From positions 3,712,001 to 3,776,000 of the forward strand of contig CM000150.2 in the NCBI GenBank assembly GCA_000004695.1: 64,000 nucleotides of DNA. Reading direction: 5' to 3'. Below the pieces are notes generated by a model, which had not been told where the DNA came from, searched no databases, and saw only the letters and a program-made list of their open reading frames with translations. The position numbers and the translations under genes were made by a program. The first letter of the stretch is position 1, and each line of letters begins with the position of its first letter. The stretch is from Dictyostelium discoideum (Eukaryota). Shown in pieces: positions 31,580-32,917 of the stretch.

Positions 31580-32917
31580 ATGGAACCAATAATAAATGAA
31601 AAAAAAGAATTAAATTTTTTAGAAAAAGATATTATTGAAGCAGTAAATAAATATCCAACACCATTTCATATTTATAATGGTGATAAAATTAAAGAGAATG
31701 GTGAATTATTAATGAATAGTTTTAAAAAATATTTCCCAAATTATAGAAATTATTTTGCAGTAAAAGCAACACCAAATCCATCAATTTTAAAACTATTAAA
31801 AGAAATTGGTATGGGTGTTGATTGTTCTTCATTAGCTGAATTAATATTATCTGAAAAAGGTAAATAATAAATAATAATAATAATTAATTTAAAAAATAAA
31901 AATTTTATTAATTATTTTATTTTATTTTTAGTTGGATTTAAAAATGAAGAAATTATGTTTACATCAAATAATACAAAATCAGAAGAATATAAAAAAGCAT
32001 ATGAATTAGGATCAATTATAAATTTAGATGATTATACACAAATTGAATATCTTTATGAAAGTTTAGGAGGAGTAATGCCAGAATTGATTAGTTTTAGATA
32101 TAATCCTGGACCATTAAAAAAAGGTAATGATATTATTGGTAATCCAAAGGATGCAAAATTTGGATTAACAAGTGATGATTTAGAGAAAGCCTATAATAAA
32201 GCCAAAGAATTGGGTGTTAAAAGATTTGGACTTCATTGTATGGTAGCATCAAATGAATTGGATTTAGATTATTTTGAAGAGACTGCACGTTTATTATTTT
32301 CAACCATTTCAAAACTAACAAAATCATGTGGAATTACATTTGAAATGGTTAATTTAGGTGGTGGTATTGGTATACCCTATCGTCCTAATCAAATTGCAGT
32401 TGATTATTTAAAATTAACTGAAAAAATTTCAAATGCCTATAAGGAATTAATTGTAGAGGAAGAAGGATTACCAAAATTAAATGTTGTAACTGAATGTGGT
32501 AGAGTTATAACTGGACCCTATGGTGTATTGGTTACAAAAGCAATTCATTCAAAATCAACCTATAAAGAATACATTGGTGTTGATGCATGTATGGTTAATT
32601 TAATGCGTCCTGGTATGTATGGTGCTTATCATCATATCACAGTTTTAAATCCAACTGATCCAAATTCAACTGAAACCTATGATGTTGTTGGTTCACTTTG
32701 TGAAAATAATGATAAATTTTGTATCGATCGTTCATTACCAAAAATTCATCGTGGAGATACTTTAGTAATTCATGATACTGGTGCTCATGGTCATAGTATG
32801 GGTTTCAATTATAATGGTAAATTAAGATCTGCTGAATATCTCTTATTAAATAATTCAATTAATTGTATTCGTAGAGCTGAAACTTTTGATGATTTATTTT
32901 CAACTTTAAATTTTTAA
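31580..32917 (+). CDS. Diaminopimelate decarboxylase-like PLP-dependent enzyme (LysA type; Orn/DAP/Arg decarboxylase family 2), about 421 aa
   Basis: Exons 31580..31859 (donor GTAAAT, phase 1) and 31932..32917. The PLP-lysine motif is YFAVKATPNPSIL. Other LysA-like segments include NLGGGIGIPY, ECGRVITGPYGVLVTKA, VDACMVNLMRPGMYGAYHHITVL (compare E. coli LysA VDAGFNDLMRPAMYGSYHHISAL), GSLCENND and GDTLVIHDTGAHGHSMGFNYN. Confidence 0.85.

Follow-up and report, generated by a model that had tools for sequence, protein, structure and literature searches.

Why would a lysine auxotroph keep only the last enzyme of the diaminopimelate (DAP) pathway? The question is raised by a gene at positions 31580-32917, on the forward strand, of a 64,000-nucleotide stretch of Dictyostelium discoideum DNA (contig CM000150.2, positions 3,712,001 to 3,776,000). 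We call this whole stretch the window. The protein resembles the DAP decarboxylase (LysA) of prokaryotes. We argue that the Dictyostelium enzyme is a salvage step that would act alone and turn the meso-DAP of bacterial prey into lysine, and we give this reading a probability of about 0.6. An earlier note on this DNA had offered two functions, the end of a DAP route in a lysine prototroph or a repurposed decarboxylase. Neither of these seems the best option to us, as salvage fits better.

The gene is real and has been annotated before; neither its existence nor its family is new. Its spliced product is 100% identical to XP_646350.1 / EAL72278.1 / UniProt Q55CY1 of D. discoideum AX4, and the database label of XP_646350.1 / Q55CY1 is "group IV decarboxylase". 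A Dictyostelium sequence also figured in a published LysA phylogeny (PMC3846528). Our literature searches returned no functional study of the Dictyostelium gene and none on DAP salvage in amoebae. What is worth considering is therefore which kind of LysA this is and what it would do in an amoeba.

Family membership and the GAHG-type subfamily

Several kinds of comparison place the protein in the same family. Pfam finds both domains of the Orn/DAP/Arg decarboxylase fold (PF02784, 7e-34; PF00278, 5e-19). Pfam, AlphaFold and Foldseek all give the two-domain architecture of a fold-type III pyridoxal phosphate (PLP) decarboxylase, with an N-terminal alpha/beta barrel and a C-terminal beta-sheet domain. 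The lysA model TIGR01048 is the only NCBIfam model whose cut-off the protein passes, and it does so narrowly, with 302.3 bits (3.9e-90) against an equivalog cut-off of 297.9 bits. The scores of other models are far under their cut-offs. DokD (NF052544, D-ornithine/D-lysine decarboxylase) gives 118.3 bits against 700, NspC (TIGR01047, carboxynorspermidine decarboxylase) 24.3 against 409, FslC 62 against 500 and SpeA 43 against 624. In a sequence search of the PDB the top 12 matches are all DAP decarboxylases, from 2e-54 (Aquifex 2p3e) to 3.5e-36. Ornithine decarboxylases (ODCs) and antizyme inhibitor rank later, at about 1e-17 and weaker (3e-17 to 1e-7 for the ODCs).

Structure prediction agrees with this. 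An AlphaFold model was built from a 17-sequence alignment (predicted local distance difference test, pLDDT, 81.6; predicted template modelling score, pTM, 0.84). When this predicted structure is compared with the PDB by Foldseek the best matches are the DAP decarboxylases of H. pylori, M. jannaschii, E. coli, Arabidopsis and Aquifex, with TM scores of 0.81-0.83, and the best ODC is only at rank 49 (TMq 0.68). LysA-like proteins of diverged function (BtrK, DokD and FslC) are present among the match lists. Membership among the ODCs or antizyme inhibitors finds no place in these searches, where their sequence and fold matches in the PDB are weaker and the carboxylate-binding Arg and Tyr are kept. 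By sequence and predicted fold, then, the protein is a prokaryote-type LysA and not an ODC-like, antizyme-inhibitor-like or NspC-like protein. This upholds the bacterial-type family call of the earlier note, with TIGR01048 passed and ODC, antizyme inhibitor and NspC much weaker. Its claim of collinearity over the whole length also stands, since TIGR01048 spans residues 7-417 of 421 and the Aquifex enzyme matches at 2e-54.

The active site was read from an alignment to E. coli LysA (E. coli lysA and dapF were taken from NC_000913.3). Residue roles were taken from a preprint on the diatom enzyme PtLYSA (bioRxiv 10.1101/2020.10.01.322594). The preprint describes a Y/FAxKA motif, and an EPGR motif in which the Glu touches the pyridine N1 and the Arg sets the preference for meso-DAP. 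Binding of the distal (L-centre) carboxylate of DAP falls to the Arg and Tyr of R-P-x-x-Y, and the Cys and Glu of CES(G/S)D come in trans from the partner subunit of the dimer. The residues assigned to substrate binding are all retained in the Dictyostelium protein. Only the Pro of EPGR is changed, to Cys, with E281 and R284 kept. Similarly, CENND has an Asn in place of the Ser of CES(G/S)D and retains C350 and E351. Across the subfamily delimited below, K62, E281, R284, R319, Y323, C350 and E351 are invariant in alignments of 17 and 15 sequences, and GGG is invariant in both alignments too.

The contacts to PLP are a different matter. FAVKA with K62, GGG at residues 236-238 and MRPGMYGAYHH at 318-328 are present as the earlier note quoted them, but its C-terminal motif was misread as GAYG. 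The real sequence, HDTGAHGHSMGFNYNG, reads GAHG with His379. Alignment to E. coli LysA finds neither the GAYG Tyr nor the second His of HxHIGS in the Dictyostelium protein. His379 stands at the position of E. coli Y378, the GAYG Tyr that hydrogen-bonds to the PLP phosphate, and Met197 at that of E. coli H191, the second His of HxHIGS, which stacks on the PLP ring. Both substitutions also occur in prokaryotic orthologues of dap operons, and in nearly all representatives with at least 37% identity. Since they are shared with the dap-operon orthologues they mark a variant clade and not a loss of function.

How large is this clade? Identity to the Dictyostelium protein is 65-99% in the dictyostelids, 61% in the protosteloid amoebae Ceratiomyxa and Clastostelium, and then 55-63% in prokaryotes. 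The solved LysA proteins are much more distant, with only 27-35%. Two subfamily patterns, [SA]MGFNYNG and CENNDKF, were scanned over one genome per species, and this confirmed at least 598 prokaryotic species. They include Spirochaetes, Negativicutes, Desulfitobacteria, Bacteroidia, Chloroflexi, Deferribacteres, Verrucomicrobia, bacteria of the candidate phyla radiation (CPR) and Methanosarcinales. Motifs were compared among representatives clustered at 50% identity. Almost all relatives with at least 37% identity combine GAHG with E-[not P]-G-R; GAYG and EPGR are found lower. The GAHG and GAYG/EPGR groups split at 87% bootstrap in neighbour-joining (NJ) trees. We know of no solved structure for the GAHG-type clade. 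This is a structural side-issue in its own right, as a clade of this size places Met and His where all solved DAP decarboxylases use His and Tyr. We also considered whether Met197 is unique to the GAHG subfamily and rejected the idea, as Met is common among GAYG/EPGR-type representatives as well.

The prokaryotic members can be judged by their neighbours. All open reading frames (ORFs) around 82 non-redundant prokaryotic loci were clustered without prior assumptions. The commonest neighbours are a DapL-type aminotransferase (16), DapA (13), DapB (13), Asd (8) and aspartate kinase (8). At least one DAP-pathway gene lies within 7 kb at 24 of the 82 loci, often in a tight same-strand operon. The closest bacterial homologue (63% identity) is the last gene of an operon with the order aspartate kinase-dapB-dapA-asd-dapL-lysA, and the aminotransferase of this operon is DapL (TIGR03542, 538 bits). 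In three Bacteroidia loci dapF is directly upstream of lysA, an arrangement that suggests meso-DAP as the substrate. By Rfam, four Firmicute loci have a lysine riboswitch (RF00168) immediately before lysA and on its strand. A covariance model made from those four riboswitches finds two more upstream of lysA, for a total of six, and another two before adjacent dap operons. The orthologues are thereby linked to lysine biosynthesis by dap operons, dapF-lysA pairs and lysine riboswitches. On these grounds of genomic context we argue that the GAHG-type prokaryotic subfamily is genuine LysA and lysine-biosynthetic.

One can ask whether the GAHG enzymes bypass DapF, as dapF is absent from most dapL-lysA operons. 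We rejected this because the dapF-lysA pairs in Bacteroidia argue against it. Gene order varies within the subfamily. Three archaeal members, from Methanosarcinales and Woesearchaeota metagenome-assembled genomes (L014, L045 and L076), have the order dapB-dapA-lysA-dapL-aspartate kinase(-asd), which differs from the bacterial dapB-dapA-(asd)-dapL-lysA. Most of these archaeal operons do not contain dapF. In a Treponemataceae metagenome-assembled genome (L061:7987-9207) aspartate kinase, dapB, dapA, the GAHG-type lysA and dapL are followed by a second group IV decarboxylase. This one has 24% identity to the Dictyostelium protein, with GAYG and EPGR present, RPxxY absent and CTS replacing CES. 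Its best NCBIfam model is the exosortase-A-associated decarboxylase at 258 bits, under the cut-off, and lysA gives 222 bits.

More distant relatives are found on plasmids of Agrobacterium (pAtA74a_b, L092:5953-7257) and Yersinia frederiksenii (L093:5941-7182). They have 43-47% identity to the Dictyostelium protein and are annotated as diaminopimelate decarboxylase. In one case the neighbours are a 2-oxoglutarate (2OG)-Fe(II) oxygenase, a creatininase-family protein and a MATE efflux pump. In the other case they are an ATP-grasp enzyme, a methyltransferase and an aminotransferase. These two relatives are probably mis-annotated enzymes of secondary metabolism.

The role of the enzyme in a lysine auxotroph

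We propose the following route. The ancestor of the Eumycetozoa would have acquired a prokaryotic GAHG-type LysA once, long ago, and the gene would have been inherited vertically after that. Its product would be a functional, probably cytosolic, PLP-dependent meso-DAP decarboxylase. The peptidoglycan of phagocytosed Gram-negative bacteria and bacilli would be degraded to give free meso-DAP. The enzyme would then decarboxylate the D-centre of meso-DAP, which yields L-lysine. We infer the activity on meso-DAP from the conserved residues. The salvage role is the most likely one by analogy, given the trypanosomatid precedent described below and the lysine auxotrophy of the host.

That auxotrophy is what speaks most directly against a complete pathway. 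PMC12923814, which cites Payne & Loomis, counts lysine among 11 amino acids essential for D. discoideum (those nine that animals need, together with serine and arginine), a count that comes from genome analysis. In defined medium with heavy lysine, 93% of the D. discoideum proteome is labelled once the cells have doubled five times (PMC3971484). As lysine is listed as essential and the labelling is so complete, the enzyme is unlikely to be the last step of de novo synthesis. Within 10 kb on either side of the gene there is no other dap gene (dapA, dapB, dapL, dapD/C/E, ddh or dapF), the rest of the genome not having been scanned. Going by the literature, the upstream dap genes would be absent from the Dictyostelium genome altogether. 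One could still hold that this is the last enzyme of a full DAP pathway in a lysine prototroph, as the protein is a bona fide LysA type and its prokaryotic orthologues act in full pathways. Given the list of essential amino acids, the lysine in defined media, the 93% labelling and the empty flanks, we consider this very improbable. Without de novo lysine synthesis the enzyme is most likely a lone salvage step. Since Dictyostelium eats bacteria, we deem the meso-DAP of peptidoglycan the likeliest thing to be salvaged.

It must be said that several observations weigh against this. The two PLP-contact residues, Met197 and His379, are unlike those of every solved DAP decarboxylase. The TIGR01048 scores of the orthologues straddle the cut-off, with prokaryotes at 296.6-305.9 bits, D. 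purpureum at 288, Ceratiomyxa at 286 and Heterostelium at 267, so that the other dictyostelids fall under it (266-288 bits). The AlphaFold model has low confidence at residues 315-324 and 377-389, which overlap active-site blocks. Around the relatives with 43-47% identity on the Agrobacterium and Yersinia plasmids, the gene clusters resemble those of secondary metabolism and not of lysine synthesis, so the function can change within the wider clade. Lastly, by our rough estimate the DAP of the prey comes to only a few per cent of the lysine in prey protein. Prey protein supplies far more lysine than peptidoglycan does, and so the nutritional gain may be small.

Most of these points would suit a repurposed decarboxylase whose substrate is not meso-DAP. 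Such a substrate could be a basic amino acid (D- or L-ornithine, lysine or arginine), a precursor of polyamines, or a secondary-metabolism intermediate. The departures from canonical LysA at two PLP contacts, the plasmid relatives, the dictyostelid scores under the lysA cut-off and the presence of BtrK, DokD and FslC, LysA-like proteins that diverged in function, among the match lists all lean this way. However, there is no variation in the residues that hold the distal alpha-carboxylate and amino group of DAP (Arg, Arg, Tyr and Glu), and the same Met197 and His379 variants are found in orthologues that belong to dap operons or lie behind lysine riboswitches. The nearest prokaryotic orthologues, at about 60% identity, are plainly lysine-biosynthetic by context and riboswitches, and the DokD, FslC and NspC models score far under their cut-offs. 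Dictyostelium also has a separate eukaryotic ODC. We think the sequence comparisons disfavour a repurposed enzyme, and its probability is low.

The small nutritional gain would suit another alternative, namely that meso-DAP is decarboxylated for a non-nutritional end. This could be the detoxification or removal of DAP, or of DAP-type muropeptide signals, by way of lysine catabolism. By our own estimate DAP adds little to the lysine from prey protein, and the gene has nonetheless been kept across the Eumycetozoa clade with its catalytic residues invariant. This alternative is compatible with salvage, and free meso-DAP is not known to be toxic to amoebae. We regard it as rather less probable than a change of substrate, though not as far-fetched as prototrophy.

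Salvage of meso-DAP for its lysine is thus the reading we prefer. A more specific proposal is that this single ancient LysA was kept so that the prey cell wall yields an essential amino acid, in which case the fitness effect of the gene should depend measurably on whether the prey is of the DAP type (Gram-negatives and bacilli) or of the Lys type (staphylococci and micrococci). We put this forward tentatively, and would not be surprised to see it fail. If it is true, the lone enzyme of a "lost pathway" is an adaptation to bacterivory, parallel to that of the trypanosomatids. If salvage itself is true, this is a second, independent bacterivorous protist that harvests a compound found only in bacteria by means of a horizontally acquired bacterial gene. 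Heavy-lysine labelling of Dictyostelium routinely uses E. coli AT713 (lysA22) as food (PMC6397043). That strain makes unlabelled DAP. An active amoeba enzyme could therefore dilute the lysine label with lysine from the unlabelled DAP of AT713, which amounts to a ready-made test of salvage.

Gene structure, surroundings and origin

The locus consists of two open segments. Splicing joins them into a coding sequence (CDS) of 1266 nt that encodes 421 amino acids. Table 1 gives the positions of the gene parts and of the active-site motifs. D. purpureum and Heterostelium album each have an intron at this codon too, in the same phase as in D. discoideum but of other lengths (67 nt and 93 nt). The Tieghemostelium lacteum orthologue (L097:3001-4290) is intronless, which by comparison with the other three indicates a lineage-specific intron loss.

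Table 1. Parts of the LysA-type gene and predicted active-site motifs of its product, with positions in the window.
Feature	Positions	Strand	Remarks
Exon 1	31580..31859	+	280 nt, ATG at 31580; residues 1-93 and base 1 of the Val94 codon
Intron	31860..31931	+	72 nt, GT..AG, 2.8% GC, phase 1, after ...LILSEK|V
Exon 2	31932..32917	+	residues 94-421; TAA stop at 32915-32917
Lys62 of FAVKA	31763..31765	+	predicted PLP Schiff-base lysine; aligns with E. coli K54
GGG loop, residues 236-238	32357..32365	+	predicted PLP phosphate binding; E. coli G225-G227
ECGR, residues 281-284	32492..32503	+	counterpart of EPGR; E281 and R284 = E. coli E268 and R271
MRPGMYGAYHH, residues 318-328	32603..32635	+	R319 and Y323 = E. 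coli R307 and Y311
CENND, residues 350-354	32699..32713	+	counterpart of CES(G/S)D; C350 and E351 = E. coli C342 and E343
HDTGAHGHSMGFNYNG, residues 374-389	32771..32818	+	His379 for the GAYG Tyr; subfamily signature block

A prokaryote-type gene in an amoeba invites the suspicion of bacterial contamination or of an assembly artefact, and it is true that the nearest non-eukaryotic relatives are prokaryotic, with about 60% identity. This does not hold up. The gene has a spliceosomal intron of very low GC. The GC content at third codon positions (GC3) of the CDS is 8.3%, inside the 5-24% of neighbouring long ORFs, so the codon usage is typical of the host as the earlier note had said. Both flanks are eukaryotic within a megabase-scale contig: the genes are an M1 aminopeptidase, COX6B, an Arf-family GTPase, a LYR protein and importin-11. 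Orthologues are found in all sampled dictyostelid genomes, with the same intron site in three of them and with partly conserved neighbours; importin-11 is downstream in D. purpureum as well. The intron, the GC3, the flanks and the dictyostelid orthologues already refute contamination, whose probability we take to be negligible. The gene is a resident and an old one, because of its shared intron site, its host-like GC3, its eukaryotic neighbours and its dictyostelid orthologues. The earlier note was right to call it resident.

The convergent gene downstream (33025-35145, reverse strand) has long runs of Asn, Gln and Tyr and no Pfam match in D. discoideum. At the equivalent position Heterostelium album has a WD40 beta-propeller protein. 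This suggests that the microsynteny is conserved and that the D. discoideum gene is a very low-complexity orthologue of the WD40 gene. Upstream, AAAGTTGAAAAAA is present in four exact copies at 31475-31557 on the forward strand, 23-105 nt before the start codon. Across the window there are five copies (0.15 are expected by chance), and the fifth is at 47904-47916. It was not found upstream of the D. purpureum orthologue. These copies may have a promoter function, or be no more than A-rich repeats.

NJ trees place 15 eukaryotic or eukaryote-like sequences in one clade with 99% bootstrap. Within it the dictyostelid subclade has 100%, and its branching matches the species tree. A profile search with the eukaryotic clade returns the same 15 sequences at 762-808 bits; the next matches are all bacterial and reach at most 702. 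There is no supported prokaryotic sister group in the NJ trees (at most 17% bootstrap), so no donor lineage can be named. The earlier note had left the choice between horizontal and vertical origin to phylogeny. The trees answer this in part, as a single eukaryotic clade fits an ancient acquisition and the donor side finds no support. From these trees and scores, we argue that the Eumycetozoa sequences fit one ancient acquisition from a prokaryote with vertical descent since. Ancient vertical inheritance with widespread loss elsewhere remains a formal alternative.

Comparison with known systems

Canonical LysA (EC 4.1.1.20) gives the best sequence and fold matches, namely E. coli P00861 (1KNW/1KO0), M. 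jannaschii 1TWI, H. pylori 2QGH and Arabidopsis 6N2A/6N2F. The Dictyostelium protein shares their two-domain fold-type III PLP architecture, the PLP lysine, GGG, the Glu and Arg of E-x-G-R, R-P-x-x-Y and the trans Cys-Glu pair. It differs in its low identity (27-35%), with Met for the second His of HxHIGS, His for the GAYG Tyr and Cys for the Pro of EPGR. It also belongs to a separate clade (87% NJ bootstrap) that has no solved structure. Unlike the hosts of canonical LysA, Dictyostelium lacks the rest of the pathway, going by the literature.

The GAHG-type prokaryotes are much closer, for example Spirochaeta thermophila, Calditerrivibrio, Pelosinus, Desulfitobacterium, Methanosarcinales and CPR bacteria. 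The likeness is 55-63% identity over the full length, with HxMVASNE, E(C/N)GR, MRPGMYGAYHH, SLCENNDKF and GAHGxxMGFNYNGKLRSAE in common. Their genes belong to dap operons or follow lysine riboswitches, and they serve de novo synthesis, whereas the Dictyostelium gene is solitary, intron-bearing and host-like in composition.

The precedent for a lone terminal enzyme dates from the 1960s. The trypanosomatids Crithidia, Leptomonas, Angomonas and Strigomonas resemble Dictyostelium in that a lysine-requiring protist has a terminal DAP enzyme of bacterial origin and nothing else of the pathway. DAP decarboxylase activity has been measured in the lysine auxotrophs Crithidia and Leptomonas, which can grow when DAP replaces lysine (PMC3846528, PMC8406214). 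In those organisms the function has been demonstrated, whereas in Dictyostelium it is a proposed one. In a published tree (PMC3846528) the trypanosomatid enzymes fall together with those of Dictyostelium and Polysphondylium, with 65% bootstrap. Our searches point elsewhere. No trypanosomatid sequence is among the best 120 matches of either homology search, and the best 120 of the eukaryotic-clade profile include no trypanosomatid or Capsaspora homologue of those reported in PMC3846528. Because of this absence, and the clear score gap down to the bacteria, the trypanosomatid and Dictyostelium enzymes are probably not close relatives but separate acquisitions.

The diatom enzyme PtLYSA (Phaeodactylum tricornutum, 7JPJ) is another eukaryotic LysA gained from bacteria horizontally (bioRxiv 10.1101/2020.10.01.322594). 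Only PtLYSA is plastid-targeted and completes a full pathway. It also has Thr for the Arg of EPGR and a relaxed stereospecificity, whereas the Dictyostelium protein keeps the Arg.

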